From IMG/VR virus record IMGVR_UViG_3300024549_000205, positions 11,802 to 75,801 of that record: 64,000 bases of DNA, one strand, 5' to 3'. A program made the position numbers and the translations under genes. The stretch is from a virus (taxonomy: Duplodnaviria; Caudoviricetes). Every line of letters starts with the position of its first letter. Position 1 is the stretch's first letter. Shown in pieces: positions 1 to 53,802 of the stretch. The notes under the pieces were generated by a model. That model made no database searches. It had not been told where the DNA came from and saw nothing but the letters and a program-made list of their open reading frames with translations.

Positions 1-216
1 AATGATCTCTACAAGCTCATCGTTCTGCTCTTGTAGATTCTTAATCTCTTCATTTTTTAGTAATAGATGTTGTTTGCAAAAATCTCCGTTAACAAGATCT
101 TTAACTACTTCTCTAGCTACTTTTTCATTCAATACTATCTTTTTGATGGTATCTGTCTGTGAAATACTCTTGAAGCTCACTAATAGACATAGTATCAATA
201 ACCTTAATTGTGTCAT
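1..216 (-). CDS. Partial secreted coiled-coil protein, putative second spanin-like component (not in the ORF track; runs off the window edge)
   Basis: Manual translation from ATG at 216 gives MTQLRLLILCLLVSFKSISQTDTIKKIVLNEKVAREVVKDLVNGDFCKQHLLLKNEEIKNLQEQNDELVEII, open to base 1. It has a signal peptide and overlaps the upstream 116-aa gene by 92 nt, in an Rz/Rz1-like layout. Confidence 0.7.
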   Translation of the reverse strand, partial: MTQLRLLILCLLVSFKSISQTDTIKKIVLNEKVAREVVKDLVNGDFCKQHLLLKNEEIKNLQEQNDELVEII

Positions 217-475
217 GTTGTATTTGTATTAATGTTTTTTCTTTTTGAATAATAGTACTTTCACTAATTTTTAAACTATCAAGTTTATTCCAGTGTAGTT
301 CTTCTTTTTGCTCAAGTACTTCAATCTCTTTTTCAAGACGTTGCTTTTCTTTTTCTAATTCACTATTCTGTCCTATTCCATAAAACAAGAATAGAAAGAA
401 CAGTATAATTAAAATGGACCCAAGCCATTGTTGTTTTATGAAATTACTTATACGGTACATAACTTGTTTTACCAC
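125..475 (-). CDS. Putative inner-membrane spanin (N-terminal TM helix plus periplasmic coiled coil)
   Basis: Hydrophobic WLGSILIILFFLFLFYGIG followed by a heptad-rich EKEKQRLEKEIEVLEQKEE segment; follows the endolysins. Confidence 0.6.
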   Translation of the reverse strand: MVKQVMYRISNFIKQQWLGSILIILFFLFLFYGIGQNSELEKEKQRLEKEIEVLEQKEELHWNKLDSLKISESTIIQKEKTLIQIQHDTIKVIDTMSISELQEYFTDRYHQKDSIE

Positions 476-905
476 CTGATTTAACAGCTTTTAAAATTTG
501 TTTACGTTGTTTACCAGTTGATTCATATGATACATGAACCCAATCAGGATTTTTATCAGTACCAAATTCCCAAATCATTTGATCAAAGTTTAAGTTGTCT
601 TTAATGAACTTAAATATTTGTGCATTAGTTATTGATGTACCATCCATATCAATATCAATTGCTTCACCAGAACAATGCTGAGAGGACAAACTTCCTCCAA
701 TAGCAGTATTAAGAGCCTTGCTTCTGTACCCTGATGAAATATGAATAGGAACTTCAAAGTGTTCTCTAATTGGCTGGAATATATTCTCAGCTAACTTTTT
801 AAAATTTTCAATGTGTTCTGGAGTTGGCATATTGCTAATTCCTTTTCTCTTTGCAGTTTCACTTCTTGTTACTTCTGCTAACGATAGGTTTTCTGATAAT
901 TGCAT
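444..905 (-). CDS. Peptidase M15A-type (D-Ala-D-Ala carboxypeptidase fold) endolysin
   Basis: Motifs ISSGYRS..LN.AIGG...SQH..GEAIDI and WVHVSY (Zn ligands H, D, H). Confidence 0.9.
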   Translation of the reverse strand: MQLSENLSLAEVTRSETAKRKGISNMPTPEHIENFKKLAENIFQPIREHFEVPIHISSGYRSKALNTAIGGSLSSQHCSGEAIDIDMDGTSITNAQIFKFIKDNLNFDQMIWEFGTDKNPDWVHVSYESTGKQRKQILKAVKSGGKTSYVPYK

Positions 906-908
906 AAT

Positions 909-1367
909 TTATTTTTTAAAATATAATTTAGATTCTGCTTCTCTTCTTGCTACAAGACCTTTCAAAGTTTTTCCTCCTGCTTTTACCCATTTCATAAACT
1001 CTAGTTTAATACTTTCGTCTGCAGGATTAGCATTCACTTTCTTCAATAGAGTGGAAGATTTTAAATTTGCTGGACCTAAGTTATAAGCAAATGATACTAA
1101 TGCATCAAATTGATTTTGATTGATGTCATCTCTACAATAACTATCTACATACTTCTCAAAACTAACAAGCATATGTTTTAATAACTCAACTGATTCTGTT
1201 TCAGTAAGAGCTTTATCAGTCATTGTTACTTTCTTACCATTAGGATAGAATGTTGCTCCATACCCAATTGTTGGTATACCTGCTGGACATTTGTATGGAG
1301 CTGATTTAAACCCTTCAAAGGTTTTAATCAATTCAACACCTGCCACTCCTGTTTTAGTTATCTTCAT
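909..1367 (-). CDS. GH24 phage lysozyme (endolysin)
   Basis: LIKTFEGF..APYKCPAGIPTIGYG, QNQFDALVSFAYNLG, GLVARREAE; catalytic E-x8-(D/C)-x5-T with Cys in the D position. Confidence 0.92.
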   Translation of the reverse strand: MKITKTGVAGVELIKTFEGFKSAPYKCPAGIPTIGYGATFYPNGKKVTMTDKALTETESVELLKHMLVSFEKYVDSYCRDDINQNQFDALVSFAYNLGPANLKSSTLLKKVNANPADESIKLEFMKWVKAGGKTLKGLVARREAESKLYFKK

Positions 1368-1591
1368 TATTGTTTACTCTTAGTAAATTTATCAATTGAT
1401 GTAAGGCCTAATGCACCAAATGCAAACAAAGCTACAGACTCTACAAGAACATCTGAAGGCTTAATTAATTCATGACTGAATGTGTTAGCAATTAAAGATG
1501 CTACAAGTGCAACAACACATAAAAGTCCTGCTACACGTTTAGATGAAACTCTATTTGATTCATCACTTACTAATTCTTTCCAAAAGCTCAT
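1367..1591 (-). CDS. Putative holin (2 TM)
   Basis: 74 aa, SSKR motif then two hydrophobic helices and a basic tail; TAATG-coupled to the lysozyme. Confidence 0.65.
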   Translation of the reverse strand: MSFWKELVSDESNRVSSKRVAGLLCVVALVASLIANTFSHELIKPSDVLVESVALFAFGALGLTSIDKFTKSKQ

Positions 1592-1593
1592 AA

Positions 1594-2349
1594 CTATTTA
1601 ATTTTATTATTACTATTTTCTTGTGTGGCATATTTAATACCCATAATTGTACCAACTATTGAAAATGCGTTTGTCAATAAGACACTAAACATGTTACTCC
1701 AAGTAGACCCAATAATTTGAGTTTCTTTATTTGTTACAATAGCTGCCCAATATAATACAGTTGTTACAATTCCAACACCTATTATTACTGCCAAAGCACA
1801 TTTAACAATCACTTTTATTAACTCACTTTGACCTTTTTTTATAATTACATCTAAATCATTCAAAGCAGCATCTTTTTCTTTCTCTATTGAATCTTTAAGT
1901 TTTTCAGATTTTTCCAACTCAATCTGTAAGTCTTTAGATAAAGCATCAATCTTGTTTTTACTATCTACTGTTTCAGTAATGTCAGTAGCAATCTTCATTA
2001 TTTTTGTAATATTACCCTCTTCATTAAAAATAGGATTGTAAGTTGCTTGTAAATAAATAGGACTGCCATCTATTTTTTTTCTTTCAAACTCTCCTTCAAA
2101 GAATATACCCTCTCTTAATTTTTCCCAAAACTTAACGTACTCATCAGATTTAGAATACTCATAAGTAACAAAAATACTATGATGTTTTCCAATAAGTTTT
2201 TCGTGTTCATCTTCTTGAAAACCCATAGTCTTTAAAAAGATAGAATTTACTCCCAATATAAAACCTTCTAAATCAAAATAAATAATAGCATTACTTCTAT
2301 TAATAGCTTCAAGACGACTTAATAGCTCTTCTTTAGGTAGGTTTTTCAT
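1594..2349 (-). CDS. PAS-domain membrane protein (PAS/PAC + coiled coil + 2 TM) in the lysis cassette
   Basis: AIIYFDLEGFILGVNSIFL...LIGKHHSIF...FWEKLREG..FEGEFERKKIDGSPIYLQATYNPI...KIMKIATDIT is a BdlA/chemoreceptor-type PAS; C-terminal hydrophobic segments. Confidence 0.85.
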   Translation of the reverse strand: MKNLPKEELLSRLEAINRSNAIIYFDLEGFILGVNSIFLKTMGFQEDEHEKLIGKHHSIFVTYEYSKSDEYVKFWEKLREGIFFEGEFERKKIDGSPIYLQATYNPIFNEEGNITKIMKIATDITETVDSKNKIDALSKDLQIELEKSEKLKDSIEKEKDAALNDLDVIIKKGQSELIKVIVKCALAVIIGVGIVTTVLYWAAIVTNKETQIIGSTWSNMFSVLLTNAFSIVGTIMGIKYATQENSNNKIK

Positions 2350-2669
2350 TATGATGTAATATTTTTATATAATGTAGATATGTATTGTAATAAGACACCT
2401 ATCCCTACGATTATACCTACAGTCCAGGTAAATCGTTTCTTAAACTCTTCTTGTTTTTGAATCTTAGTTTCTAAATCTTTGATTCGTTCTTTAAGTTCAG
2501 TTATGTCTGTAACAAATCCACCAGTTTTTGTCAAAGCATTACCTAATATAGCATCCACCACTTGTGTTAGTTTGCTATCTATAGAGGTCATTTTTTCCTC
2601 TAGATCGTATAAACGTTGATCCATGCTCTTCAATTCTTTTTCTACTTGTTGTTCAAATGATTGGGCCAT
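2349..2669 (-). CDS. Coiled-coil protein with a C-terminal TM helix, holin/XhlA-like
   Basis: Heptad repeats followed by FTWTVGIIVGIGVLLQYI; first gene of the lysis cluster. Confidence 0.55.
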   Translation of the reverse strand: MAQSFEQQVEKELKSMDQRLYDLEEKMTSIDSKLTQVVDAILGNALTKTGGFVTDITELKERIKDLETKIQKQEEFKKRFTWTVGIIVGIGVLLQYISTLYKNITS

Positions 2670-2861: not shown

Positions 2862-3251
2862 TTAGTGAACAATCTTTAAAAGATCTCCTGTACGATATAT
2901 TTGACCAACACTCAATCCTGCAAATATAGCAGAAGCATTATCAGAATATTGAGGAGTGATTTTAGGTGTTGTTAATACAATACTCCAATCATTTGATCCA
3001 GCACCTACTGACTTAGCAAAATATAATATAGAATTAGTTGTATTCAAATAAAGCTGTCCTATATATGTAGCAGAAGTAGTAGGAGCAGTGGTACCAGTTT
3101 TTGGTACCAAGTTATTATTTATTTTAGCTAATATAGACTCAAGACTTTCTAAAGGATTGGCTTGTATATTAGTTAAATAAGAGCCATTGTATATAATGCA
3201 TTTAGCATTTTCATATGTGGCACACGTTGGGCAAATTGCAGCTGTTCTCAT
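2862..3251 (-). CDS. Small fibre/decoration protein with a Cys-containing N-terminal anchor module
   Basis: CIIYNGSYL...ESLESILAKIN matches the N-termini of ORFs 45116-45895, 45915-47621 and 47634-48713; C-terminus has fibre-type GQLYLNT and GQIYRTG motifs. Confidence 0.6.
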   Translation of the reverse strand: MRTAAICPTCATYENAKCIIYNGSYLTNIQANPLESLESILAKINNNLVPKTGTTAPTTSATYIGQLYLNTTNSILYFAKSVGAGSNDWSIVLTTPKITPQYSDNASAIFAGLSVGQIYRTGDLLKIVH

Positions 3252-3321: not shown

Positions 3322-6300
3322 TTATCTACTTCTTGATTCTCCAGTAACTCGTATACCTTGTTCTTTAGCCAATTCTGGATACAAGTAAGGTAATAATTCA
3401 TTTTGAAATTGTGCAGCTACAGGAATCATATTAAAGAAGTATTTAGTAGGGTGTGATTTTTCAATCATCTCTTCATCGCCTGAAACTTGTCCATACATTT
3501 CTCTACCTGTATACCAAAACACTTGTGTAGCTCTACTTAAAAGCCCAAGAGATGGAATTACAGATCCTTTAGTCATACTTTCAAATGATAAAGGATTGTA
3601 GTAGAAAGTAATCTCATCAGACACTTTATTTACAAGTTTTAGATACCACTTGTATCTATTTTTTTCTTCTTCTGTAGCATCTTCTGGTGGTTCAGCTGCT
3701 TTAGCTGCAAGAACTAATGACATCATTCCAAACAATAAGTATAGTTCTTTCATTTGATTACCTATTTGTTCTCTGATAAGATCTTGGAATTCCTCTTCTG
3801 TAATCTCTAATTCTTGACCAGTCTTTCTAAAGTAATCTAATTTCTTAGCCTCAAGCATTTCATTAAGAATTTGTAATCCTTCATCAGTACCAGTTATAAT
3901 GGCTCTCATTTTTGATATGTTTCTAAACCCTACATGTTGCCAAGTTTTAACAAACGCTCTAGTTCTACCATATTCCCATTTATCAAGTTCTGCATTTTTA
4001 TCAATTCCTAACGTATGTTCAGCAACTAACTTAGGCATCCAGTTTTTGAACATCATGAATGAACTAAATATAGTATCTCTTCTGTACCCAGCTTTATTGT
4101 CTTCATTCATCTGACCATTAAGCTTTCTACCATATTCAATAATAGATGTACGAAACTTAGCTAACTCTGAATCACTCACTCCTGGAATAATCACTTCATC
4201 ATTTTCAATAGTAGCCACCTTATCTAATGAAGAAGATTCTTTTAATTCTTTAACTCTTTCATTAAATGATTTCTCTAAAGCTTTTCTTTCGCTTTCAGAC
4301 AATTCTTTTCTAGCATTTCTATCTTGTTGTTTTAAGTACTGAACTATGTTCACAATCTTACCATCTACAACCATTGAGTTATCGATAATACTCAATGCAT
4401 TACCCATTTGTAATCTTCTTTCAGCAAAAGAGTTAGTTGACATCATCACATCAGTGAATGTCCATGTAGACAGGTATTTACCAAGTCCTTGTTTCTTAGC
4501 TATCTTTCTTCTTTCTTCTGTAGTAACATCTTCATTCAGTGGTACAATAAGATCTAAAAGTCCTTTTTGTATTACAGTGAAACCTTTTCCTGTAACAACC
4601 TTTAAGTTGTTCTTTTGAAATTCTGCAAATGAATACATTGTTCCACCATTAACGAATGCTTGAAAGTTGTATCCAATAAAGTTGGCTATAGCAATAAGAG
4701 GTTTAAGACCAACCGCAAGAGATCTAGTTAATGTATCAGCATTACTTAAAAGCTTTTTAGCATTCACTGTCTTAGCTTCTTTTTCTTCTTCTGTCTTACC
4801 AAATTTTTCTCCAAACGTAGCAAAACCAACATTCCCTAATGAACCAAGATCTTGTCCTAGTTTGTATAGTCCATCTTCAATAATCACTTGTAATATATCT
4901 GCATTCTTATTTTCTGATTCATTTACACTCAACTCTCCATCTGTAAACTGAACAACACCATTCTCAACTATAAGACTTCCTTTAGATTTTTCAACAGCAT
5001 GTAATGTAAGAAGAGTGTTCTCTAAGTTCTTAGAACTTTCATATTCTAATAAAGACTTAACCCACATTGCACCCACCTTATTAAGGTCAGTAGACAATTG
5101 GTTCACAGCTTTATCTGTTTGAGTAAAGTATTTAGGAATTGACTTTCTCACTTTACCTGTCTCAGGATCAATTTTAGAAAGGTTTTGTCCCTCATTAATT
5201 CTAGTTTGATAGAAGTCTGTCCATAAAGATTCTTTTGCTTGAGCAGTTACATCATTTGTCTGTGCAAACTTCTGAAGAATGGTAGCTTCTATTAATGGAA
5301 AGAATGAACTTCCTTGTTTATCAAGGTAACCCATTTGTCTAGCTTTAGCATTCAAATCGCTGAAGAATTGCCACACATCATGAGCAGCTTTATTTTTACG
5401 AAGATCTTCATACTCTTTAGAATACTTACCATCTTCAATCATTGTTTCTCTGAATAACTGTTTGAATCTGTAATTATCGTATCCATCAAAGTATTCACTA
5501 TGTATATCTAAGGAATCTCTTAGTTTAGCTTTTCTCCAAGTACGTTGTAATGAATCTTCTTCTTGATCATTTGAGAATACAGTTTTATCAAGATCTGTCA
5601 ATCCTTTATCAATTGCAGCCTTAGAAAGTTTATCATACTCCTCAATATTCATGTTCTTTAAAAAGAAATCTTTATCACGTTTCTCTCTAGCATCTTTTAA
5701 TTTATTCCAGAACGCAACGTCAAACTTTCTAATAAGGTTTAACCCTGTTGGAGACATTGTACCAATTAAGTCAAATGCATTCACTCCTCTTGCTGCAGCT
5801 TCTTTTTCTAATGGAATAAGAAGTTTCTCATACTCTTTCATTTTTCTTGAAAACTCAATATTCACAAGACTATTTGCATTCATAAGCATGTTTGACGCAA
5901 GCTTAATAATCTTAGCAGAAAGTTTAGATCCTTCTAAAAATGTTTTAGCAAAACCATCAATTTCTTTCTCAGCTTTCAATATAGTGGTTTTAGTCTCTTC
6001 TGTTGTGACTCCTTCTTTAATACCTAAGTGTACAGCATATTGATTTTGTAATTCAGAAATCTCATTCAACATTCGACCTGCCATAGAAGCAATGTGCTCT
6101 AGTTCTTTCAATATCTTTTTATTGTCATCAGTCATTCCCTCTCTTGTATATTCAGAAAGAAACACTTGATCCATTGATGTAAACTTTACAGCACTCACAC
6201 CATATTCAATTAAGTCTCCAAGCTTTTTATCTAACTCTTCTTTACTTATTGTATTATAGTCTATTTTAGCAAAGTCATCCAATGAAGTTCTTGCATTATT

Positions 6301-8073
6301 CAAGAATGATTTACCTACAGTTACTAAAGGTTCGAAGTTTAATTTAACATGTAAGTTACGAATAGCAGTGCTTAACTTATTGATTTCTAAGATTTTAGTA
6401 TATCTATCTTCAGGAGATACTGGTTTCTTATATAGTTTTTCCCATTGCTCTCTCAATGATTTTACAAGAGAATCAATTTTTGGGTTACCTGTGCTCTCTG
6501 AGTTAATAGGAACTGGAAGTAAGTATAGATTTGTTTCTTCTAATGAATTTAGTTTACCTATTTCCATAGATGTAGGAGCAGAGAATCCACTTTCAGGTTT
6601 TCCTTCAACTGCATAGTTGTAGTTGATAACAAATGGAATCATCCTCGCTTTTCTTAATTGAGCAGGTTGTAATCCATAGTTATATAAAATCTTAGTGTAC
6701 TCACCCATCTGAGCTTTCCAGTCTTTCTGTTTACCCCAGTGAATATCTTCATCCACACTTTTGTTTACAGATGTAGTTTTCCAGTCAAGGATATCCACTT
6801 TAATATCATCTGTTCCATCTTCTTTTTGATAAGGTTCAAGAGCCATGAAATCAACTGCAGATGCAAGTTTACCTTTCACTCTCTGATTAACCACCTTAGC
6901 TTCTAATATGAAACGTGTACCTGGTTTGTAAGAGCTGATGAGCTCTGTAGCAAATGCTTCTATTCTTGTTTGAACTTTAGGATCAAGTTTAGTTGCTATA
7001 GCATTGGTTAATGCTACATCTCTTTTATATCCATCTTTATCTATAAGATTGTTAGTTACAAATTTATATATATAATCATGTATTTCAGTTCCCCAGTCTT
7101 TCTTCTGATCATCTAAGAACTTCTGAAGATCAGTTCTATCAGGAAGAGTTTTTTTAAGTGATGCTGTTACAGAAGGAATTTGTTCAGGTAGATCATCAAG
7201 AACATAATGTCTTGGTATTTTTTTACCTGACTCATCTGTTGTTTCATCCACCACTTTTAATCTATTACTAAAATCTATAACTGTATCGTAGAGTTTATCT
7301 ACAATAGAGTTTTTAACTTGATAGAATATACCACCATTAGTAATATTAGAAACTACTCCACCTACATTAGCAGATAACACTTTACGTGAAGTTTGTTGGA
7401 AGATATCTATATTAGATTTTCTATATTGTCCTCTGATGAAATCAAGAATAGTATCCCACCATTTTTGTACCATAGAACGTTCTGTTTCAGCCATTAGTTC
7501 AGGAAACTGTGTAGAGCCTTCAGATTGATTGATAATTAATTCAGCTATAAGTTTATCTACAGCTTCTTTTTTTATCTTTCTAATATCTGGTTTTCCATTA
7601 GCTAACTGATACGCTTTCTTTCCTTTATATGCTTTTAATGTTTCATCATAGATTTTAAATCTAGTAATTTTAGAAATCATTTCTGTAACAAGCTTTGGAT
7701 TAGTTTGTTCTAATATAGCTGTAGCAATGTGCACCACCTCTTCTGTTAAAGTGTATCCTTCCATTCCTTGAGCAATAGCTATTACTCCTTTAATAAGATC
7801 AGCAAGACCATTGACTCCTTTAGTATCTATATCAGGATTACCTTTAGAATAATCTTCTAAAGTTACAATATCTAAATCCATTTGCTTAGCAACATCTTTC
7901 ATCATAGCCACTGTTTCATTAGAAGCTTTTGATGCAGGATGTTCAGTTTGAAAATATTCTTTTTGAGGAACTTCCCCTTCGTAAAATTCCCAAAGATAGT
8001 GGGCCATGTTTTCACCTCTGGCAGTCACTAAGGACTGCCATTCTTGTGAACTAGTATTTATACAACTTATCAT
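3322..8073 (-). CDS. Large virion cargo/ejection protein with a degenerate zincin-like region and a PD-(D/E)xK nuclease domain
   Basis: EEVVH...KKEAVDKLIA; WGTEIH...E...AVDFM...ILDWKT...QMGEY (RecB/Cas4-like); lies directly after the RNAP gene, as in crAss-like phages. Confidence 0.7.
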   Translation of the reverse strand: MISCINTSSQEWQSLVTARGENMAHYLWEFYEGEVPQKEYFQTEHPASKASNETVAMMKDVAKQMDLDIVTLEDYSKGNPDIDTKGVNGLADLIKGVIAIAQGMEGYTLTEEVVHIATAILEQTNPKLVTEMISKITRFKIYDETLKAYKGKKAYQLANGKPDIRKIKKEAVDKLIAELIINQSEGSTQFPELMAETERSMVQKWWDTILDFIRGQYRKSNIDIFQQTSRKVLSANVGGVVSNITNGGIFYQVKNSIVDKLYDTVIDFSNRLKVVDETTDESGKKIPRHYVLDDLPEQIPSVTASLKKTLPDRTDLQKFLDDQKKDWGTEIHDYIYKFVTNNLIDKDGYKRDVALTNAIATKLDPKVQTRIEAFATELISSYKPGTRFILEAKVVNQRVKGKLASAVDFMALEPYQKEDGTDDIKVDILDWKTTSVNKSVDEDIHWGKQKDWKAQMGEYTKILYNYGLQPAQLRKARMIPFVINYNYAVEGKPESGFSAPTSMEIGKLNSLEETNLYLLPVPINSESTGNPKIDSLVKSLREQWEKLYKKPVSPEDRYTKILEINKLSTAIRNLHVKLNFEPLVTVGKSFLNNARTSLDDFAKIDYNTISKEELDKKLGDLIEYGVSAVKFTSMDQVFLSEYTREGMTDDNKKILKELEHIASMAGRMLNEISELQNQYAVHLGIKEGVTTEETKTTILKAEKEIDGFAKTFLEGSKLSAKIIKLASNMLMNANSLVNIEFSRKMKEYEKLLIPLEKEAAARGVNAFDLIGTMSPTGLNLIRKFDVAFWNKLKDAREKRDKDFFLKNMNIEEYDKLSKAAIDKGLTDLDKTVFSNDQEEDSLQRTWRKAKLRDSLDIHSEYFDGYDNYRFKQLFRETMIEDGKYSKEYEDLRKNKAAHDVWQFFSDLNAKARQMGYLDKQGSSFFPLIEATILQKFAQTNDVTAQAKESLWTDFYQTRINEGQNLSKIDPETGKVRKSIPKYFTQTDKAVNQLSTDLNKVGAMWVKSLLEYESSKNLENTLLTLHAVEKSKGSLIVENGVVQFTDGELSVNESENKNADILQVIIEDGLYKLGQDLGSLGNVGFATFGEKFGKTEEEKEAKTVNAKKLLSNADTLTRSLAVGLKPLIAIANFIGYNFQAFVNGGTMYSFAEFQKNNLKVVTGKGFTVIQKGLLDLIVPLNEDVTTEERRKIAKKQGLGKYLSTWTFTDVMMSTNSFAERRLQMGNALSIIDNSMVVDGKIVNIVQYLKQQDRNARKELSESERKALEKSFNERVKELKESSSLDKVATIENDEVIIPGVSDSELAKFRTSIIEYGRKLNGQMNEDNKAGYRRDTIFSSFMMFKNWMPKLVAEHTLGIDKNAELDKWEYGRTRAFVKTWQHVGFRNISKMRAIITGTDEGLQILNEMLEAKKLDYFRKTGQELEITEEEFQDLIREQIGNQMKELYLLFGMMSLVLAAKAAEPPEDATEEEKNRYKWYLKLVNKVSDEITFYYNPLSFESMTKGSVIPSLGLLSRATQVFWYTGREMYGQVSGDEEMIEKSHPTKYFFNMIPVAAQFQNELLPYLYPELAKEQGIRVTGESRSR

Positions 8074-8074
8074 A

Positions 8075-11000
8075 TTAACAAATTTCTTTTCTAACTTCTT
8101 TTAATATTTTCCCAATTTCTTCATTACTATATCCAAGTTTAATTAACATGTCTATACCAATGTCACTTAAGTTATAAGACTTACCATCTTTTAACACACG
8201 CTCTTTGGTTGATCTTGGTGCTTCTACCACTGGTTCAGCCACTGGAGCAGGAGCTTGAGGGTCGTTGTTTATACTTCCATTGTCATTATCAAAACCAAAC
8301 TCTTGTAAAAGTCTTTGTTTTAAATATGCATATGTCTGAGGAGCTTTTTCTTTTAGCTGTGCTAAACCTGTACCCAATCCATCTTTAGGCATCACTACAG
8401 TTTTGCCTGTTGCTTTGATTTTAGCTATGTCACCATCAATGATCTGTCTGTTCTTGATTAAGTCTTTGTCTGACATAAAAGCAGCTTCATCCATCGAAGG
8501 AGTAATTTTTGTAGCTATTCCCATAGCGTTAGGATTGTTTCTGATTTGAGCTTGGCCACCCATTCCAACTCTTTGAGTGTTATCTCCAAATACATAAATC
8601 TTATCTGGATTAGCTTGTACGTCAGCAACAGAATATCTGTCTACCACTTCTACATTTTTAGTTGGTTGGATTGTAGCTACCACTGGTGTTGTTCCTAAAA
8701 GAGCCAATTCAATTTCACTATCTTCTACTTCTCTCATCACCTTCATAAATCCATTGTCTAATACAGATGGTCTAGATACTGTTGAGTTAGGATCCAAAGG
8801 AAACTCTTTACCGTAAAACTCTTGAGCTCTATATGAATCACCCCAAGCATTAATCATTTTGTATACATAGTTTAGGTAGGTTCTTTCAACTCCATTTTTA
8901 CCTTTGAATGTAGATTCTTGTATTAAAGGAACTCTTTTACCTTCATCATTTATTTTGTATACCTTTTTGAATAATCCTTTATTGACGTGAGAAGTATCTC
9001 CAATTCTTCTAGCCTTAATTCTTTGAGCTTTTGTAATTTGTCCTTCGTAAGAATATGTCATGAAATCACTTCTTCCTTCTCTTGAACGAATTGGTATTAC
9101 AACCATTTCAGGAAGTTCTCCATTAAGCATCTTCTTCTCTAGTTTCTTACTTAAGAATTGTCTTTCTGGGTAGTACCAATTTCCAGGAGTTGCTTTACTT
9201 TCTTGCAATCTTCCTTTCTTAAATACAACAACGTTAGTGTTATTCCAGTTGCTTCTCTCCATTGTATCTAACGTTTTAAAGTCCGCTAAGTTAGGGATAT
9301 TTTCTAAATTAGACAACGTTTGGTTGTAAAATTCTTTAAAATCATCATAAGGAAGAAGGTTAGTAAATGCAATAGGAGAGTTTGTAAGTCCTGATTGTAT
9401 TACAGCAAGTCTAACAAGCTTACCATAAAGATCTTTGTTCTCATCACCAAGCTTTTCTTTTAACTCATTGAATCCATAGATGATCATGTTTTGGTCATAC
9501 ACCTTAGCGTCTTTACCTTTGATAGAGATGTTATCTGGACTAGCAATAAACATATTCATCATTTTTCTAGATTCCTTAGGTGCATATCCTAACTTCATCA
9601 ATAACTCAAGACTTATATTTTCTCTTTGATATACATTACCATCTTTTAGTTTATATTCATCCAATACAATCTTTTTACCACTTTCTAATTGTAATGATTT
9701 AAGAATCATGTTGTTATGTAAAGGATGTGTTTCATCTTTTAACACCTTATCTCTAAATTCAATAATTTGTTTAGCAGCACTCTTTTCTGTTGAGTTACCT
9801 AATAATATTTTCTTAACTGAGTTGTTAAGTTTTCTATCGTTCTGTACAGCCCAGTCAAAAAGATCATTCACTGCTTTCTGAGAAATCTTAATAAAATCTC
9901 TATCACTCATTTCTGTATAAGGAGCTAACACTTGTTCCATCACCTTTCTGACATTCTTTTTATCAGAGATTAAGATTTCAGCAAATGCATCACGTACACC
10001 ATATATAACATTAGCAAGCTCACCTACAAAAGAGTTCTTAAGAATACTATCTACAGCAGGTACCACTTCATTCTTTTCATTTATAGAAGAAAACATCGTT
10101 CTTTGTGCTTTAGCAAGTTGCATTTGTTTCTTGAATACTAAATATGGATCATTGATTGTTGCAGTGTCAAAATTAGATCCTTGTGTAACTTGGAACATAT
10201 GACTAGCCATCATAGCGTATTTTAAAAACTCATCTAATATATAATTCTGTTGAGCTAACTCTGAAGGACTCATTTTCTCAGGAGATTTACCCATCATGTC
10301 ATACAAATCTGTCTCATTAGGGATTCCATTTACAACAACATTGTCCTCTGTTAAATAATCATATTTAACATCATCAACAAATTTTTCAATGAACAACCAT
10401 GAGTATCCATTGTTTTGGATTGTTCTCAAGTAATCACGGATGATTGGTTGGTTCATGAAATAACCTACTGTGTTAATAGGCACACCAAGCTTAACTAAGA
10501 ATAACCATGTAGAAGCTACATTAGGAGTAGCTCCCATCTCCATAATCCAAGGACCTTTGGAGATATCCACATATCCATCGATAAACTGTCCAATAGTATC
10601 AGAGATGTATGTTTTGTCATCAGCACTCTTTATTTTAGATAGAGTGGCACGTTTAACTCCATTAACCATAACTGAGTTGTACTCATTGAAGTTAATTTGA
10701 CCATCACCTAACCATCCTGCATCTACTGGATCAACTGTTGTTTTTATTTTAACTGGATCTACATAAATAAGACTACGTTGATTTTGAGCATGGTTAGTTT
10801 GATTCACCGCAGCAATACCAATTGCATACTTACCTGTAACAAACGCATGTCTCAAGTTAGTCATAAATGCTCTACTCAACATGTTACCTACAGCACCATA
10901 GTCAATCTTAGTTCTACCAAGTTTATCATTAATCTTATCAGTTAATTCTTTAAGATCATCTGCAGAGTTAGGTTTAATTAAGTTATCAAAGTTAAGGTCG

Positions 11001-14000
11001 TTAGAAATTAACTTCTGTAATGATTGGATGTATTCATTCTCTAATGACTGTCTGTAAAGATCATTAATTACATCTTCTCTTTGTGTTGAGTATTGTTCAG
11101 GGAAAATAGCTTCCATTAATCTATCTTCAGCCTCTCCTTTGGAAAGAAGTTTTTTAGAGTTTAAGTACTCATTAAATTCTCCAGCATCATACATTTTACC
11201 AAACTTATCAATGGCTTCTTGACCTACACCTAAGTAAGGAACCACTTTAGGTTTTTTGTCATTGCTAGGATATATGTTTTTCAAATAGATTGACAACTTA
11301 TCAATATCAAAATCCGATCCAGCTTTCATAACAAGTTCTGAAGGAATAACAACTGAGTCTTTATATCCTTCAGGTAAGAACTTAGCTATCTCAAATACAT
11401 CAATAGAGTTTTGTTTCTGTGTTGGAATACGGAATGCCACACCCATAATAGCTTCAAACTCTTTCTTGCCTTCTGGATCATTATTGAAATAATTAATAAG
11501 CTCCTCATCAGACATATCTGATTTAAACCATTTACCCACCATTAACTGACAAACATTTATTGTCTTACCGTTCTCATTTCTAGTGTAGAACTTAAGTAGG
11601 TTAGAGCTATAAACATTCTTACCTTTAACTACTTGTTGCCCAGGTCTTTCTGATTCTAATAATGTAGAAGGAATCTGTACCTTCATACCTCCAGATATCT
11701 TAGGAGATACAACGTTCTTATCAGCAATAGAGTAAAGAATGTTTCTGATTTGTTGGTATGCAGGAGTAGCCTCCAATACAACATCTCCAGACTTAAATCC
11801 TTTTAGTGCATCACTGATGTTATCATTCACTTCTCGTTTCAAGATCTCATCTCTCAACGTGTCAGTTAGTTTATTAATATTACTTATTATGAATCCATCA
11901 GCAGTTTTTGTTATACCAAGTTTCTTAAGAAGAGATTTGTATCCATACTCTATCTTAGCATTTAACATGTCTTGGTTATGCTTAATGTCTTTGTATAGTT
12001 CAGACTCTTTTAGTTTTTGCTCAGGAGATAGTTTTATCCATTTAATGAATCTAGCATTGAAATCTCCGTTATTAACATCAAAGTCAATTGGCACACCAGC
12101 TTCCATAAAGTCTAATGTAGCAAGTTTAGTCACCTGAGATCCTTGTGTTACATAAGCTGCATCTTTAGAAGGAACTTCTGCTTGTACACCCATAATAGCA
12201 AACGGTATGTTTGATACTGCTTGTTTCTCATAGATGTTAATACCAGCATTAGCATCTTCGAATGGTGTCTCATCGAACTTACCTTTTTTATCATATAAAG
12301 GAGATATCTTCTCAGCACCCACTTTACTTCCTGATTCAAAAACAGCATAGTCAATGTTCTCTTTCTGCATCTTGTCATACAACTTGATAGCATTAGAGTC
12401 AGGATTCATTTTGTGAAGTAGTCTGAATGATAGAGGAAGTAATGCAAACTTATGTAGTACAACATCATTGTAATCTCTACCATTAGCTTTATTACCAGAC
12501 ACAATAGGTTTTCTAGGAGTGTATGTACTCGCTACCTCAGGACTGTTTCTATCAAATTTTTCTATCTCTCTCTTACTAGCTCCTGATCTAACAAGATCTT
12601 CGTACGCCATATCATGTCGATATTGAGCTTCATTAGCTTCAGTCCATTCTCCAGAACGTATTCCAAATACACGATTGGCTTTTAACATAATGTATCCACC
12701 ACCATCAGTTTCTTTATATGGGTCATAATCTTTAAGATCACTAACACTCAATATATCTCCAAGAGTGATTGTTCTAAAATAATCTAATGTCATATCAGTG
12801 TAACCAGCATCTCCAGGTTTGAATCCTTTGTTATAGATTTCATTAAGAGCAGCATTTACATCTTGTGATCCTACTAAAAGAGCTTGTCTAGGAGAGTTAA
12901 AGTTTTTAATACGTTTCAACTCATCAGAATACTGATAAGGGTCTGAATATAATAACTTGTGCATCTCGATGTTAGCTATCATATAATTGATAGACAACAC
13001 TTGAAGTTGGTCTCTTAAAGTTTTTTCATTTAATTCTAACTCATTATCAAGTTTGATATCGTCAATAGTTAATCCTTCGCTACCATAGTATACAATACCA
13101 TAGTTTTTAAGAAGAGCTTCTGTATCTGCAGCATCTTTTTTAATGAACTCATCTACAGCTTCATTAATTTCAGATCTGAATCCTTTGAATCCTTCTGAAG
13201 GTTTTCCATTGTACAACTCTTCAGCTGTATATTTTCTATAAGCTCCTTTTGTTATTTTATTATTAAGCTCTTCACCTAAAATAGATTTAAAGAAACGTAA
13301 GTCTGTTGGCTTTCTATTTTCATTCTCAACTATATTACGTCCATCTCTAGCAAGTTCCACTTCAGATATAAAATAGTTTTTAAAGATTTCATAGTGATCT
13401 TTGTCAGCATATTCTTCTTTAGTTACGAATGCTAAATCATTGTGCATTTTAACAGCCCATTCAATAGCAGCATCTCCAGGAACAAGATTTAAGTAGTATC
13501 CATTTAAGTTAAGATTGATTTCTTGAACAAGTCTCTCTTTAGCTGAAAGTTTAGAACTTTCTTTCTTTACACCACGAACTTGATTATCCATACCATCAAT
13601 GTATACAGACTTCATTAAGTCTTGTGTACCAGCAATACGTTTACCTGTTCCTTTTGTAGGATGTAAGTTGAACATCTTCTGCATCATCACACTTCCTTTA
13701 GCAAATACGTCATTACGTAAATATTCGTATTGTTTGTATGCAGGATTGCTTGATAACTCAGTGATGTTATCTAGTTTAGAAAGAATGTTGTGTAATCCAC
13801 TCAACGCGTTCACACCAATATAAGTTTGTGTACGTTCTCCATTCATGTTGAAGTATGTACTCTCGAATTCTTTATTTTCAATAACAGCCTGCACAAGTCC
13901 TAATTGGAATAAGTTTCCTTCTATGTTTAATGCTCTAGGAGTTAAACTAACTATACCTCTAGCAACTTCTCCATTAGCTTCGTCATTTTCAATCTCAGCA

Positions 14001-17000
14001 TCAGTTTTAGCTTTACCTTTATCGTTCAAATCAGAGAAGACTCTTTTTATTCCTTCTACAGCACCTCTAAAAGCTAATGCTTGATTATCAGTTAATCTAC
14101 TTAATGCTTTGATATTGAACTCAATACCTAATTCATTAAGTAACGCTGTATAAGTTGTCAAGTCTGAACCACTCAATGGCATAGACTTAATCTTATCTGT
14201 AGCATAATATCTTCCTGTCTTAGGTTCGTAAGAGAAGAATGTAGAATTAGATTTAATTTTGTCAACCATAGTGTTGGTCATATCACGCTTAGCTTGTTTA
14301 GCTGCACTAGTTAATGTTGAATCACTAACTACTACATCTCCACCAGGCATGATGAATACAGATATAGCATCAGCATTCTGACTCTTCATTGATTTCCAGA
14401 ACGCAGTGATAAGTTGCCATGATGACTCATCTAATGATCTAACATCAATTGGTGCAGTAATAGATGATTTTGTAAGTCTTGTGTACAAGTTCTCAAAGTT
14501 AGGATCTCCTTTAGCCATTTCTCTAAGTCTATCCAACATATCATCAATGTTTACAGAATCGAAAAGTTTGTTTTTCAATCTAATAAACACTGAATCAGCA
14601 GGAATAAGAATAGCACCACCAATAGAAGATTTTTCAACTTTCAATTCTCTTTCTCCTTTTTCATTCACACCTACGTATGAAAGAGGAAGAGTTCCTAGTA
14701 ATAACTTAACAGCACCGTTTGCTTTTCTGAATGAATCAATCTTTCTAGCATCTCCAAAAGGATCTTCTTTACTTTTCTCAAACTCACTAATGTCAAGCTC
14801 ATCATTCTCATCAAACTGTATATTGAATGTTTTAAGCTTCTCTTTGTGTCTCTCAATAATAGATTCCCATTGAGCATCTACAGTGTCATATAATGTTCCA
14901 ATATCATTGTATAATTTATCACCTTCTTCTTCAGTAAGACGACCATCTCTCTTATCTTGTTCTATAAGATCTGCTTGATGACCAATCACATCTAGTATTC
15001 TCACATTAAGCATTTCGTAAAGCTCTTTCTGTCTAGGTTTAACTATGTTGAATAAGCTTTCTTTTCTCTTAATAAGATCAGTAAGAGTAATGAATGTCAT
15101 CTCGTCAATTATCTCATGTAACTGAACAGCAGGGATTCCTGTTACTCTCAAATCAGAAAAATCATCAGCTGAAGCATTTTCAATATCAATCACACCCACA
15201 TTAGCATAAGCTAACTGAGATACATAAGGATTGAATGTATTGTAATATCCATCACCTATCTTGTTGAATAACTCTTTTGTATTACGTTGAGCATCTTTAC
15301 CATAGAAGAATGACTTGATGAAATCAATCAATTGAGAGAACAACTTACCAATCAAACTCTTAGAGGCAATTGATTTACCTAATTTATCATTAAGTACAGC
15401 ATCTCTGAATTCCTCAGCAAGTTCTTCTTTGATTTGATGAGCTGTCGCATATTTGTATTCAACTGTTCTACCAGTTTCTCTATCTACGAATGTTCCTTCT
15501 CTACTTGTAAACTCTTTAAGTATGGCTTCTTTTTCTTTTGCATCAGCAAACATTTTCCATACAGCTTCAAATACCTCGTGGTACACAGTACCTACCTCAG
15601 CATTTTCGTATATATAGATAGCTCCATTATGAAGCATACCCCAAGCTTGTTTACCATTAGTAGCTTGAATGATGTTCTTCACTCTGTATACAGGAATGTT
15701 TGGGAACTTCTCACCAATCCATTTCTCTAACTTCTTCCAATCTTCACCTTGGAACTTCTTAGCTTGTCTAGCTACAACAACACGCATTGCAGCATCATCA
15801 GGTTTTTGTCCTCTTTGTCTACTAGCAAACTTACTTGGCTTAGCAGTTTGTTCTGTAGCTGGTGGAGTTACTATTACTTCTTCAGTGCTTTTTAATGTAG
15901 CTAGTTCTGCATTTAATCTATCATTTATTAATTTACTTCCTGAAAAATAATCTCCTAAATAATAATTTAAACCTTTTATTGTTTCAGGTAAAAATTTTGG
16001 ATTAAACATATTATCTGCTTTATCTCCTTCAATTACTTCTTTCATTAAGCCAATACCTAATGGACCATATCTTAAAAATGTAACATCATCTTTTCCTTGT
16101 TCAATTTTACCATCTACTTGAAATCTAACTGAAATTTTATTTGTAAGCTTTAAGTTATCAGATATATTTTGATCACGTAATTCAGAAGATTTTTCAACAG
16201 CATCAACTATAGCTTGAACTTTATTTGCATTACCAATATAAATAGTTATATTTTTTCCAGGTTGTCCGCCATCTTTTCCAATTTTATACCCTTTAATTAA
16301 ACCTTTAGATTTTAAATCATCTAGAATTTTAATTGTTTCAGTAGCTCTACTTCTAATTTCATCTGCTGGTGTATCATCATTTTCACTTTCAAATTGTTCA
16401 ACACCTTTAATTGAAAGATGCATTTTCCAACCTTTGTTTACATCTTTTTCAAAATTATCTATATTACTTTTTAAATTTGGACTTATTACTTCTTCAGTAC
16501 TTTCTAAAGCTGCTAGTTCTGCATCATATTTAGCATTGATTTTATCTGCATTAAGTTCTGCAAGATTATTTGGTAGACCAGAAGGACCTTCTAAACTAGC
16601 AAGCAATGATGCACTATGTTGTGTAGCAATTGGTTCAATATGTTTTGATAATACATCTCTAATTTGATCCTTAGTTAAATTAGGAAAATTATATAACATA
16701 TATTGTTCAAACTTCTTAGGATCATAAGCTGCGTAACCTTCATAATCATCAGTTATGTAAGGATTGCTTCCTGGTATATCAAATATTCCATCTATAGCTA
16801 ATGTTAGTAATTCTTTATCTTGTTCAGATAAAGATGCGTCATCAGAAACTTCTTGTTTTAATTTATTTCTAGTTTCCTCTAACGTATCAAACTGTTCAGC
16901 TACTTTTGTTTTTAAATCTTGTACACCTAACTTTTTATTTTCTTCAAGTTCAGCTTGTCTTCTTTTTTCTATATCAGCTTTCTTATCAGTAACTTCAGGA

Positions 17001-20000
17001 ACCACTTCAACATTTGGTGTAAATGGTGTAGCAATAGCAGGAGCAACAGGAATCTTTAATGCTTCTAATTGTTGAAGCACCTTCATGTAGATATCGTTAC
17101 CAATTAACTGTTGAGCTTCTGCTGGAGAAACACCTTTAGCATCAGCAACTGAATTTAAAACTTCTCCATCAAAAGAACCAAATTGAATATTAAATCCTTG
17201 ACCACTCTCATTGAACTTTTTACCATCTAGTGTAAATGTTATTTTACCGTGACTTCCAATTTGAACGGTGTTCTCTGCTATTCCATCTAACACAAATGTT
17301 GTTTGTGGAGCATCTGAAGCAGGTATCTTAGACTTAGTTTGAAATGCATCTAATTGTGGTCTAATTTTAGCCAAGATGGCTCCATAGAAAATAGCTCTAG
17401 CTTTATCAAGATCTTTATTATTGCTAGGATCAAGACCTTTCTCAGTCATAAGTGCTGCCATTGTCTCTGCTTCAAATGTGATGCTGAAACCTTTTTCTCC
17501 TTTTGAATCTATATACTCTTGAGCATTTATCTTAAAAGGAATCTTACCAAACTTACAAGTGTATATGTTTTCTTCACCTTCTAAATTATATTCTTTTTGA
17601 GCACCAGGTTGAACAGTAGCAGCAGGAGCAGGTGTTTGTTGAGCAGTCTTATCTAATGCAACTAATTGCTCATCAATATATCTGTTCAAAAGATATTTAC
17701 TAACAGCACTCATCACCTTATCCTCATCACCTTTTAGAGGTTCAAGGATTGGAGTTAAGTCACTTTGTAATTGTGCTTGATCTAAAGTTTCTTGCCATGC
17801 TTCATACGCAGCTTCATTAATAGTTTTGAAAATATTATCCATTAATGGAGCAATATTTTCTTCAGCATTAATTGCTGTTTTGATTTTCTCCAATGCATCT
17901 TTACTTACAGTGACTGCAGTTTTAGTAGGAGCAGCTGGTGTAGGAGCTTGTGTAACTACAGGAGGAGGAACTGGAATTTCATAGCTATCAATAGTAGAAT
18001 CCAATGTAAAATAGATTCCTTTCTTGTTAGGAACAGAAGGATCAGTCAATGGTCTCACTTGTGTAACTAAAGGTATCTCTTCGTTAGTTCTCCCTTCAGC
18101 TGATAATAGATATGTTTGGTAGTTATCCCAATCTCTTTTGATAGGTTGACCAGCTTCATCTATACCAATAATCTCTGTATATTTTTTCTTGAATGACTCT
18201 GTGTTAACCTTAGTGGAGTTTACATTATTGTACATACCTCTAAGAATAGCTTTGATTTCATTTTCACTATTCTGTAATCCATTTACAGTGAAATCAAATC
18301 CTTCGCCACCAAGTCCTGATAAGAATAATTTAGGATAGGTTACATTACCTTCTGTAACATTCTCAAACCATACACTATTGTATCCAGGATTTTTTTTCTC
18401 TTTTGTTTGAGTGTTTCTTGGAATGCCCCAATAAACAACAGTCTTTAACCAGTTGAATAAGTACTGTGTTTCAGCTGTCTTAGTGGTACCATCTTTATCA
18501 ACATTCTTAGTCACTTGAAGTAGAACATCATATATAGTATTCACTTCATTTTCTGTAAGGTTTCTGTTTTTTAGTTTAAGTAATCCACCTGGAACTTTTA
18601 AGAACACTCTACCTAATGGAGTGTTAAATGTCACACTACCATAAGTAACAGCTTCATTTTTTGTAGCAACCATTAATACAGGATCTTCAAGTAAAGCTCC
18701 TTCTTCTAATAGTCCTGTTTCTTCTACAGCCACTCTAGCATCATAGTCTCTTACATCTTTTCCTTTATCATCTTTGTATGTTACATAATCTGGAATACCA
18801 AATGATGCAGATATAGATTGTGGAGTGGGAACTGTTTCTTCTGCTAAACGAGCAGCTCTCCATTTATTATATTGTTGTTTTAATGACTCTTGTGCTGGAG
18901 TTAGTTTACCATCAGTAGTCATTTTTCTGAACATAGAACCTCTTTCTCTCTTACCATCTTCACTTGTATAGGTAGCTTCTAATTCATCAGCAGGGAATAC
19001 TTGAAAGATAGCATGTTTAGTAGGATCAGCCAGTTGTTCTTTTGTTAAAGGAACACCGTTCTCATCAACTAGTGTGTATGTATTATCATCATTGTCTTGT
19101 ACCATTACAAGAGCAATAATCTTATTAGGATTGATAGGTTTACCTTGACTGTCTATAGCTCTTCCTTCATCAGTCAAATAGTTCATAAGGCCATCTATGC
19201 CAGCTTCTGCTTCTGTAGCAGCAGTGACAATCATTCCACGAATAGAACCTTTGTTTGCAAACTTATGCATGTTGAAACCAAAACGGTTTGCTCTTGCATG
19301 ATGTTCTCTTATTTGCTCACCTTCTCTACCTCTAGTAACAGCAATAGTAGATCCTACTACTTCAAGGTCATCTTTCTTAGATGATGCTTCGTAGAATTCA
19401 TTACTGAAGAAACTTTGTACGTCCTTACTGTTTGTACCTAGGTATTCTGCTTGAAGAGCTTGATCACTTTCTAATTTCTTCTTCTCTGCTTCTTGCTGTT
19501 TATATTTGTCAGCAACCTGCTTGAACTTATTAAGAATCATTTCTTTAGCCTCAATCTCTTTCTGTACATCATCAAGAGCACCTTGCATAATATCCATGTG
19601 CTCAATAAGATCTTTTAGTCTTTGTTCGTTAGGAGTTATTTCAAGATCTTCAGTCTCAGCAATAATATCATCAATTAGTTGTAAGTCTGAACGATAATTA
19701 GGCTTCACTTTAAGAAAGTTAGGATTGGCTTTCAAGAAATCAACCCAGTCTTGTCCCATAAGTCTAGGAACATTTGGATATCTAGACTCAAAGTTTGCTA
19801 TAAGGTTAGATAGATAGTCGATAGTAGCATCTAATGCTCTCTGAGTCTCTCTTGCTAACTTAGATAATGTAGAGATCTGTGCTTGAGTTGTCTCTTGTAA
19901 TATCTCAAGATCGATGATTTCATCTTGTAACTCATCCATGAAATCTTTGAAGTTAGTCGAGTACTCATCTATATTAGAAGCCATGTCTGTAATATAGTTA

Positions 20001-53768: not shown

Positions 53769-53802
53769 ATGTAGTTATTTAATAATATTTGGTTTATTTT
53801 AG

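Follow-up and report, generated by a model that had tools for sequence, protein, structure and literature searches.

We analyzed a 64,000-nucleotide stretch of viral DNA (hereinafter, the window) that spans bases 11802-75801 of the 75.8-kb viral record IMGVR_UViG_3300024549_000205 (completeness estimate 65%) and in which a minus-strand gene of the lysis cassette encodes a 251-residue protein combining a PAS sensor domain, a coiled coil and a two-helix membrane hairpin. On balance, we favor the interpretation that this gene is a one-component form of a phage signaling path that governs lysis by means of a holin-like membrane effector. In other viral loci, the same membrane module is wired to a histidine kinase and a receiver, and in a third group it is fused to a GAF domain; this pattern suggests that the module behaves as a signaling output, and that phage signaling decides the time of cell burst. 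More tentatively, these systems might represent an undescribed class of signal transduction, in which the output is neither DNA binding nor an enzyme but a two-helix, pore-forming membrane effector that gates lysis post-translationally on the internal state of the cell. Such a class, if it exists, would comprise a three-gene form (sensor kinase, single-domain receiver and effector) along with one-gene forms (PAS-effector and GAF-effector), distributed among freshwater and jumbo phages.

By the criterion of hidden Markov model (HMM) matches, the 251-residue protein is a member of the PAS domain superfamily. Residues ~20-128 match the Pfam families PAS_9 (1.1e-10; 42.1 bits, cut-off 27), PAS_3 (6.5e-9; 36.4 bits, cut-off 25.6), PAS (5.5e-8; 33.2 bits, cut-off 22.6) and PAS_4 (6.8e-7; 29.9 bits, cut-off 23.1), all over their cut-offs, and the NCBIfam model TIGR00229 matches as well (1.5e-13; 51 bits, cut-off 22.9). 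Hydropathy analysis reveals two membrane segments, and in the AlphaFold2 (AF2) model an unbroken helix (residues 125-206) is followed by a turn (207-210) and a second helix (211-247), all at a predicted local distance difference test score (pLDDT) of 73-82; the PAS part is poorly modeled, with pLDDT below 50 for residues 1-68 and a mean of 59. The outer loop between the membrane helices consists of ~5 residues. The absence of a signal peptide places the PAS domain, probably, in the cytoplasm and, together with the lysines that follow the second helix, suggests that both ends of the protein are cytoplasmic. No kinase, methyl-accepting chemotaxis protein (MCP) signaling or cyclase domain was found in the protein with Pfam and NCBIfam, Pfam yielding PAS families only at E<=0.1, and neither an H-box/dimerization domain nor HATPase_c was detected in the protein or across the entire 75.8-kb record. 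Thus, the architecture that a first-pass annotation had read from the letters alone, a PAS domain with a coiled coil and two C-terminal hydrophobic helices but no kinase, MCP or cyclase output domain, was borne out. Most of the close homologs named by the Joint Genome Institute (JGI) are labeled 'methyl-accepting chemotaxis protein', an identity that we rejected because the cytoplasmic MCP signaling domain is absent. Among solved structures, the nearest PAS sequences are 3ewk, a 'sensor protein' (6.2e-6), and the PAS domain of the Aer receptor (8dik, 0.0034), although the Aer stretch that we take to contact flavin is not kept in the window protein in the printed alignment with 8dik. The scores against the NifL and DosP equivalogs are far under the cut-offs (22.9 bits versus 242 for NifL). 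On sequence, the window PAS domain thus appears to be only distantly similar to flavin-type redox sensors.

A protein search with the 251-residue sequence returned 4793 matches at E<=0.001, many of which may be PAS-only; the 120 matches listed are 359-388 residues long and 69-79% identical to the query over 92-96% of its length. The six homologs that were read contain two tandem PAS domains followed by the shared helix and hairpin, and the precomputed Pfam lists of the two-PAS homologs hold PAS families only. In IMG/VR, we identified 245 relatives of the PAS protein (three queries yielded overlapping sets of 245, 318 and 253 relatives on viral contigs) and kept 80 PAS-fused loci for the counts below, which include both one-PAS (~248 residues) and two-PAS (~370 residues) forms. 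The window PAS domain is a mosaic of the two repeats: residues 1-40 resemble the first PAS domain of two-PAS proteins (95% and 80% in the successive 20-residue blocks), and residues 41-100 are closer to the second. One-PAS and two-PAS forms are intermingled in a quick tree, where 7-9 changes are needed to account for them, which implies that PAS copies have been gained and lost repeatedly. To estimate selection, we compared the window gene with 24 of the 33 distinct one-PAS open reading frames (ORFs), using only pairs with a synonymous distance (dS) of 0.1-2.5 (87-212 of the 300 pairs). Nine ORFs were left out (L002, L006, L013, L037, L039, L060, L061, L069 and L077), most for different or cut starts; L002 encodes a protein identical to that of the window, and L006 was simply not taken into the set. 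The ratio of nonsynonymous to synonymous substitution rates (dN/dS) was ~0.06 overall, with 0.06 in the PAS domain, 0.04-0.06 in the helix and 0.08 in the membrane part, so that all three parts of the protein are under strong purifying selection.

The C-terminal module is not restricted to PAS proteins. A search with residues 130-251 against 1.84 billion representative proteins (E<=0.001) produced 101 clusters, in every one of which the module is C-terminal and most of which consist of proteins of 140-230 residues without a PAS domain. The non-PAS form (~180-230 residues) has a conserved N-terminal portion of ~70 residues, predicted (model pLDDT 83.9) to contain a short helix, a small hairpin and the beginning of a single 114-residue helix (38-151), after which comes the shared membrane hairpin. 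The first-pass annotation had raised the possibility that the C-terminal part occurs alone as a holin; it does occur without PAS, but carries this small N-terminal helical domain and matches no holin family. Foldseek comparison of the non-PAS model with the PDB gave nothing better than E 4, and the ESM Atlas provided no usable match. Hairpin-only database proteins of 81-135 residues were considered as stand-alone forms and rejected, being mostly internal-start calls or fragments upstream of which the frame is open and conserved.

The gene neighborhoods of the non-PAS forms point to the role of the module. After removal of 37 duplicates and 2 loci without the ORF, 115 distinct loci were retained. 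A full triad, in the order histidine kinase, single-domain receiver and then directly the module gene, is present in 92 of the 115; a receiver alone accompanies the module in 6, the module stands alone in 14, many of these at a contig end, and the remaining 3 (L170-L172) encode direct fusions of GAF and module (341-362 residues; Pfam GAF ~1e-17). The phage kinases come with two membrane helices, PAS and HATPase_c, with GAF, two PAS domains and HATPase_c, or with two PAS domains and HATPase_c; in L085, for example, the kinase matches HATPase_c (6e-15) and PAS_3 (6e-10), and the receiver matches Response_reg over the cut-off (8.9e-8). The receivers are 143-154 residues long and consist of a single domain, with D12, D13, D66, S97-99 and K119 invariant in 38 receivers. 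Judged by their domains and these residues, kinase and receiver of the sister loci qualify as a two-component system. For the receiver and the first 90 residues of the non-PAS module, complex prediction (score 0.03, mark 0.32) speaks neither for nor against binding.

The sensors fused to the module are of the kind found in the kinases. Across 128 residues, the window PAS domain shares 48% identity with the kinase-proximal PAS domain of the L146 triad kinase, and the fused GAF domains are 44-60% identical to the GAF region of triad kinases. Altogether, window-type PAS, another type of PAS (P0258) and GAF (P0252, L170-L172) were found in such fusions. Neither a kinase nor a receiver is encoded in any of the 80 PAS-fused loci or in the 75.8-kb record of the window; five of five larger PAS-fused records (31-93% complete) have no receiver, and one of these contains a HATPase_c match in a 776-residue ORF. 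Kinase and receiver are not nearby in the GAF-fused loci either. In a quick tree that includes the non-PAS forms, the PAS-fused proteins form a single clade with an SH-aLRT (Shimodaira-Hasegawa-like approximate likelihood ratio test) support of 100, the midpoint root serving for drawing only and the direction of change being unproven. By all appearances, the sensor of the kinase was joined straight to the module twice, once as PAS and once as GAF, with the loss of kinase and receiver. Fusion of this kind, with loss of kinase and receiver, classically indicates that the input and output ends of a pathway have been linked, which would make the module the output.

Several additional features of the module family can be mentioned. 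In four records, the module lies behind other N-termini, namely SOUL heme-binding, C2H2 zinc-finger-like, TsaD-like and glycosyltransferase (P0257, P0245, P0253 and P0275); these are single, context-free and possibly chimeric records, of which SOUL would be a fourth sensor type if real. A conserved protein of 62-82 residues, with a pair of membrane helices and a CPSK motif at its C-terminus, is encoded directly upstream of the kinase in 26 loci and may be a fourth member of the signaling system. The kinases also vary (L129 2428-3324; L197 808-2931 and 3488-4771; L211, L214, L201 and L230), including a PAS-less form of 298 residues with membrane helices and arrangements of two kinases before one receiver. 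In one triad group, a gene similar to late sigma factors (phrog_234, 6.9e-8; L146 4435-4809) is located just downstream of the module.

The link to lysis comes from gene order. ORFs were called in the 80 PAS-fused loci and clustered, and the clusters were named by Pfam and PHROGs. A gene of an endolysin family is adjacent to the PAS gene in 48 of the 80 loci and lies within three genes in 75, contrary to the possibility, acknowledged in the first-pass annotation, that the homologs would prove to be unlinked to lysis genes. Within the same distance, the small two-helix c1 family (proteins of 72-112 residues that include the product of the 74-residue gene of the window) is represented in 42/80 loci and Phage_holin_4_1 in 19/80. 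The PAS gene itself is constant, and its neighbors are a mosaic of M15, GH19, GH24, peptidoglycan (PG)-binding with phrog_3000, Phage_holin_4_1, c1 and spanin-like genes. For the triads, where endolysins were labeled by BLAST against a handful of representatives and other lysin types went uncounted, an endolysin-family gene is adjacent in 23/92, within three genes in 51/92 and in the fetched locus in 56/92; c1 or Phage_holin_4_1 is found within three genes in 30/92. Of the three GAF-fused loci, two have GH19 no more than three genes away. The gene order is GH19 with PG-binding, kinase, receiver, module and M15 in L179, and GH24, kinase, receiver, module and PG-binding protein in L216.

The hairpin itself is conserved to an unusual degree. 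The 31-residue segment that consists of the loop and the second helix is identical in 80 of 80 PAS-fused loci, which have 57 distinct coding DNA sequences for it; these differ at a median of 14 of the 93 bases, and 28 of the 31 third codon positions vary, synonymous change being saturated. The segment is also identical across the first 80 non-PAS loci (46 DNA sequences), the PAS-fused and non-PAS versions differing at three positions. These identities are subject to an ascertainment bias, given that one or two of the six locus-search patterns fell inside the segment. Among pattern-free representatives at 50% identity, W217, F229, S230, I231, T234 and G237 are present in at least 90% of the aligned sequences, and F229 and G237 in all. 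The invariant polar face of the segment includes N219, T226, N227, S230 and T234. The second helix has a one-sided Ser/Thr/Asn/Gly face, with a resultant of 0.52 compared to 0.19 for shuffled sequences, a value reached by 0.16% of 5000 shuffles. Between loci grouped by the type of neighboring holin, the identity of the segment is 0.93-0.99, independent of which type lies nearby. This invariance favors two possibilities, namely that the hairpins assemble with one another into a defined lesion or channel, or that they act on a host target that is fixed; an invariant membrane segment of 31 residues is a puzzle in itself.

The helix-plus-hairpin module is a family almost confined to viral contigs. 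Among 185,579 species genomes, 8 of the 43 candidate stretches encode a relative of the module, all on contigs from metagenome bins assigned to eight different taxa; most simply, these are misbinned phage contigs. In GenBank phage records, the window protein was matched by its PAS part only, in three records, and the L179 module and the L085 receiver were unmatched, although the low-complexity filter may hide matches to membrane and coiled-coil segments. The window stretch was detected, at half or more of the sampled words, in 15 sequencing runs labeled river or lake water, one of which may be the source of this DNA. In RNA libraries, the whole stretch is represented on a 30.9-kb contig of one river metatranscriptome, and contigs of 150-380 bases come from three more; contigs in such libraries can be carried-over DNA and hence are no proof of transcription. 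The system is widespread.

Under the model of lysis control that we favor, a signal perceived by the PAS domain or, in the three-gene form, phosphorylation of the receiver would alter the packing of the coiled coil and, through the continuous helix, that of the hairpins. The conserved polar faces of the hairpins would then form, or be kept from forming, a small membrane lesion, and the loss of membrane potential would fire the resident canonical holin, in this case the 74-residue neighbor, after which the two endolysins and the spanin-like pair would complete lysis. We infer both the action on the membrane and the direction of control, and the cue would be a cytoplasmic ligand, the redox state or the energy state. 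The original idea of a PAS input acting on a holin/antiholin-like module therefore stands in part: the architecture, the place in the cassette and the selection agree with it, but the module matches no holin family, and oxygen, redox or energy state as the sensed quantity would be a guess. With respect to class II holins, the PAS protein has two helices and the cassette position, and its size, 251 residues with a sensor, is atypical.

Several observations weigh against lysis control, and many of them would fit a signal-controlled membrane effector with a different purpose, which lies beside lysis genes merely as a matter of late-gene order. Such an effector might block a conserved host membrane protein (in respiration, transport or the supply of cell-wall precursors), exclude superinfecting phages or depolarize the cell for takeover. 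An invariant membrane helix is unusual for holins, and its persistence across otherwise different phages fits a fixed host target at least as well. Another small protein with at least two membrane helices is encoded within four genes in 62 of the 67 PAS-fused loci that have at least two genes on each side, so that the module is rarely the sole holin candidate. Of the 92 triads, 41 lack a recognized endolysin-type gene at a distance of up to three genes; the genes that follow the module in the L082-L101 group are of unassigned function instead of lysis genes; and in a complete 252.6-kb jumbo phage, the triad (~46-54 kb) is ~120 kb away from the only Amidase_2 match (170 kb), with no M15_3 or GH24 match in that genome. 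The module also finds no counterpart among known lysis proteins, with no match of the window protein to a holin or antiholin family of Pfam or PHROG and no structural match of the module in the PDB by Foldseek. Pfam searches of 64 non-PAS members at E<=1 yielded scattered coiled-coil and membrane noise, with weak Phage_holin_9 matches in 6/64 (best 0.0096), and nothing for this family was found in the record of the window at E<=10. Moreover, because module and receiver occur in no cultured phage, the proposal has no experimental anchor. Nevertheless, we consider the alternative of a non-lysis effector rather unlikely. The proximity to endolysin genes of four to six types in 75/80 PAS-fused loci and 51/92 triads is far above the expectation from gene order, a rough estimate that assumes 1-2 endolysin genes per 100-300 genes. 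In several loci, including L179 and L216, the triad is located between two endolysin genes. In L031 and L078, no small multi-helix protein other than the PAS protein accompanies the GH19 endolysin and the spanin-like genes.

It is also conceivable, if improbable, that the protein is a classical antiholin, the hairpin of which holds the neighboring holin inactive in the membrane until the PAS domain releases it. T4 RI, lambda S107 and P1 LydB are antiholins that are likewise membrane proteins of lysis cassettes, and in many loci, the PAS gene is a direct neighbor of genes for two-helix or Phage_holin_4_1 proteins. However, a specific helix-helix partner would be expected to co-vary, whereas the second helix stays constant when the neighbor is c1, Phage_holin_4_1, both or neither. 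Given this constancy across neighbor types and the lack of homology between the hairpin module and the c1 family of the 74-residue protein (hhalign probability 1.2%), specific antiholin-holin pairing is argued against.

Finally, a decaying, functionless fragment of a host chemoreceptor or sensor, which the chemotaxis label of the homologs and the seemingly recombinant single PAS domain of the window might bring to mind and which the first-pass annotation had itself envisaged, is refuted by the low dN/dS in all parts, the 245 relatives on viral contigs, the lack of a Pfam chemoreceptor signaling domain, the virtual absence of the module from cellular genomes and the tight translational coupling to the neighboring genes.

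Table. Features of the PAS gene, its lysis cassette and other parts of the window, with selected features of related loci. Positions refer to the window unless a locus is named; L001 is the record of the window itself, in coordinates of the full record.
Feature	Position	Strand	Basis or remark
251-residue protein: PAS, signaling helix/coiled coil and two-helix membrane hairpin	1594..2349	minus	ORF, Pfam, TIGR00229, AF2
PAS domain, residues ~15-132	1954..2307	minus	Pfam, NCBIfam
Linker and coiled-coil helix, residues ~133-176, unbroken into first membrane helix	1822..1953	minus	AF2
First membrane helix, residues ~177-205	1735..1821	minus	hydropathy, AF2; relatives 58-73% identical
Invariant family core (residues 211-241): loop with second membrane helix	1627..1719	minus	peptide identity
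106-residue protein: coiled coil and one C-terminal membrane helix, weakly XhlA-like; stop overlaps PAS start	2349..2669	minus	phrog_937, Pfam
74-residue protein: two membrane helices, charged C-terminus, family c1	1367..1591	minus	ORF, hydropathy
GH24 phage lysozyme (endolysin)	909..1367	minus	Pfam Phage_lysozyme 4.5e-42; phrog_7 endolysin 4.5e-53
Peptidase M15 (second endolysin)	444..905	minus	Pfam Peptidase_M15_3 3.7e-20; phrog_894 endolysin 2.4e-39
116-residue protein: N-terminal membrane helix and coiled coil, i-spanin-like	125..475	minus	weak phrog_1026 'Rz-like spanin' 0.0043
Start of 155-residue secreted protein, o-spanin-like by position; runs off window start	1..216 (L001 11550-12017)	minus	position
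129-residue ORF upstream of the cassette	2862-3251		phrog_25268, 2.5e-6
Giant ORFs	3322-8073, 8075-23233, 23238-25928, 26017-29319, 29324-34360, 35226-40556	minus	about half of the window
HNH endonuclease gene	53334-53768
tRNA-Met (CAT)	53802-53876
Five small, very basic proteins	L001 2983-5164		outside the window
Two-helix protein with CPSK motif, examples	L085 1873-2061; L124 1309-1509; L129 2178-2426		23 more loci

The interval 1367-2669, which the first-pass annotation had singled out, contains three minus-strand ORFs, those for the 106-, 251- and 74-residue proteins, at the head of a cassette in which the XhlA-like gene is followed by the PAS gene, the 74-residue two-helix gene, the GH24 lysozyme, the M15 peptidase and the spanin-like pair. 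The coupling reported there can be read directly in the sequence: the 106-residue ORF and the PAS ORF are joined by TAATG, and the TAG of the PAS ORF is separated by two nucleotides (tt) from the ATG of the 74-residue ORF, which in turn is joined to the lysozyme gene by TAATG. For the upstream gene, described as holin-like, the reading has to be corrected: it encodes a coiled coil with a single C-terminal membrane helix and a weak resemblance to XhlA (phrog_937 'hemolysin', 2.2e-6 over 93 residues; Pfam XhlA, PF10779, 0.0013 and 19.3 bits, cut-off 34.7). Only 4/80 PAS-fused loci have an XhlA-like gene at a distance of up to three genes from the PAS gene, so its product is no constant partner of the PAS protein. 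The 74-residue protein, which has no match in Pfam, PHROG or NCBIfam, is likely to be the canonical holin of the cassette.

At the other end of the cassette, the genes of the spanin-like pair overlap by 92 bases in different frames. The 155-residue secreted protein matches no family in Pfam, PHROG or NCBIfam, and its relatives are encoded in 15 related loci; with a signal-peptide-like start, no clear lipobox and an aromatic last residue, it could be an outer-membrane protein and not an o-spanin of the lipoprotein type. Upstream of the cassette, the matches of the 129-residue ORF are confined to the C-terminal ends of tail-fiber proteins; in the 5/80 loci that hold it, it is 61-81% identical, and the adjoining lysis genes are 83-100% identical in three of these.

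The remainder of the window is typified by large genes, all on the minus strand, that include terminase, portal and major head protein genes and a row of giant ORFs (1583, 5052, 896, 1100, 1678 and 1776 residues), in which only the 1776-residue ORF and a 309-residue ORF match the PHROGs category 'virion structural protein'. Immediately downstream of the gene for the major head protein, a tRNA gene and the HNH endonuclease gene lie side by side. The small basic proteins encoded outside the window are 58-197 residues long, rich in Lys, with repeated K/R-rich motifs, and might bind DNA or be internal components of the virion. The terminase shares 40% identity with its counterpart in a Leptolyngbya phage and 25-31% with the terminases of Cellulophaga and crAss-like phages; among the 77 records matched, Flavobacterium phages are the commonest organism, and Cellulophaga phages are among the nearer ones. 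These terminase neighbors, together with the Flavobacteriales and Saprospira labels of two of the eight cellular bins, hint at a host among Bacteroidota. The source phage is apparently lytic.

The timing of lysis determines how large the burst is and is central to phage fitness, and, to our knowledge, the known lysis clocks are either built into the holin or respond to superinfection from the periplasm. If the model outlined here is correct, phages gauge conditions inside the infected cell and time its burst accordingly. The undescribed class of signal transduction that we consider more tentatively would include the first lysis clock to have its own sensor in the cytoplasm, along with the first two-component system known to act directly on a pore-forming protein. 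Environmental plasticity of lysis time, a long-standing question, could under the model be tested directly with three or four genes, and the module is a candidate compact, ligand-gated lysis switch for synthetic biology. We found no published paper on a PAS-holin fusion or on a phage two-component system within a lysis cassette; in the accessible text of a survey of 224 jumbo phages, the one receiver variant is unrelated, a divergent domain linked to NAD systems, and the word 'holin' does not appear (PMC7824862).

In its mode of action, the PAS protein would be most like the antiholin/holin timing devices, such as T4 RI-T and lambda S107/S105, although it is a member of no such family. In T4, with the holin T and the antiholins RI and RIII, a sensory input shifts holin firing post-translationally through a small membrane protein. 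The PAS protein shares with RI/T the combination of a phage lysis cassette, a sensory input and a small membrane protein; however, RI binds T and carries a soluble domain for sensing in the periplasm, whereas the proteins described here have a cytoplasmic PAS, GAF or kinase-receiver input and an outer loop of ~5 residues, and there is no sequence similarity between the two. Phage 21 S21 68/71 and lambda S105/S107 likewise have two membrane helices with both ends in the cytoplasm, as is probably the case here, and the short, polar, Lys-bearing C-terminal tail, the polar helix face and the endolysin neighbors are all reminiscent of class II holins and pinholins. Unlike these holins, the PAS-fused proteins reach 251-388 residues, with a sensor of 130-250 residues, a coiled coil and no match to a holin family; and whereas holins are poorly conserved, the second helix is invariant here, hole formation being predicted. 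The XhlA-XhlB-XlyA lysis module of the Bacillus prophage PBSX offers a parallel for the head of the cassette, where the 106-residue protein has the coiled coil and C-terminal membrane helix of XhlA, but falls below the Pfam cut-off and is rare in the related loci. The PAS fold itself is common to the window protein, the chemoreceptors Aer and BdlA and the redox sensors NifL and MmoS, as the HMM matches indicate. The tandem PAS pair of most relatives recalls BdlA, which has two tandem PAS domains (PMC4047105); as opposed to Aer and BdlA, the window protein has no chemoreceptor signaling domain.

The signaling logic resembles that of LytSR-lrgAB and of phage sensors such as VqmA-Phi, if only by analogy. 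In Staphylococcus, the two-component system LytSR acts on the holin-like genes lrgAB/cidAB, so that in both cases a two-component system is coupled to holin/antiholin-like membrane proteins. However, LytSR is cellular and transcriptional, with a DNA-binding regulator, whereas the phage triads consist of a phage-encoded kinase and an output-less receiver within the cassette, and in the lineage of the window, direct fusion of the sensor replaces both. VqmA-Phi, like the protein studied here, has a PAS domain. In VqmA-Phi of vibriophage VP882 (PMC7790227) and in AimR of the arbitrium system, a phage-encoded receptor determines the moment of host lysis; these are soluble, DNA-binding regulators of the lysogeny-lysis decision, in contrast to the PAS protein, which has no DNA-binding domain, is inserted in the membrane and is encoded among lysis genes. 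Compared with all these systems, what is new here is a lysis regulator with a cytoplasmic, modular sensory input, the hairpin module of which is shared with kinase-receiver triads and GAF fusions.

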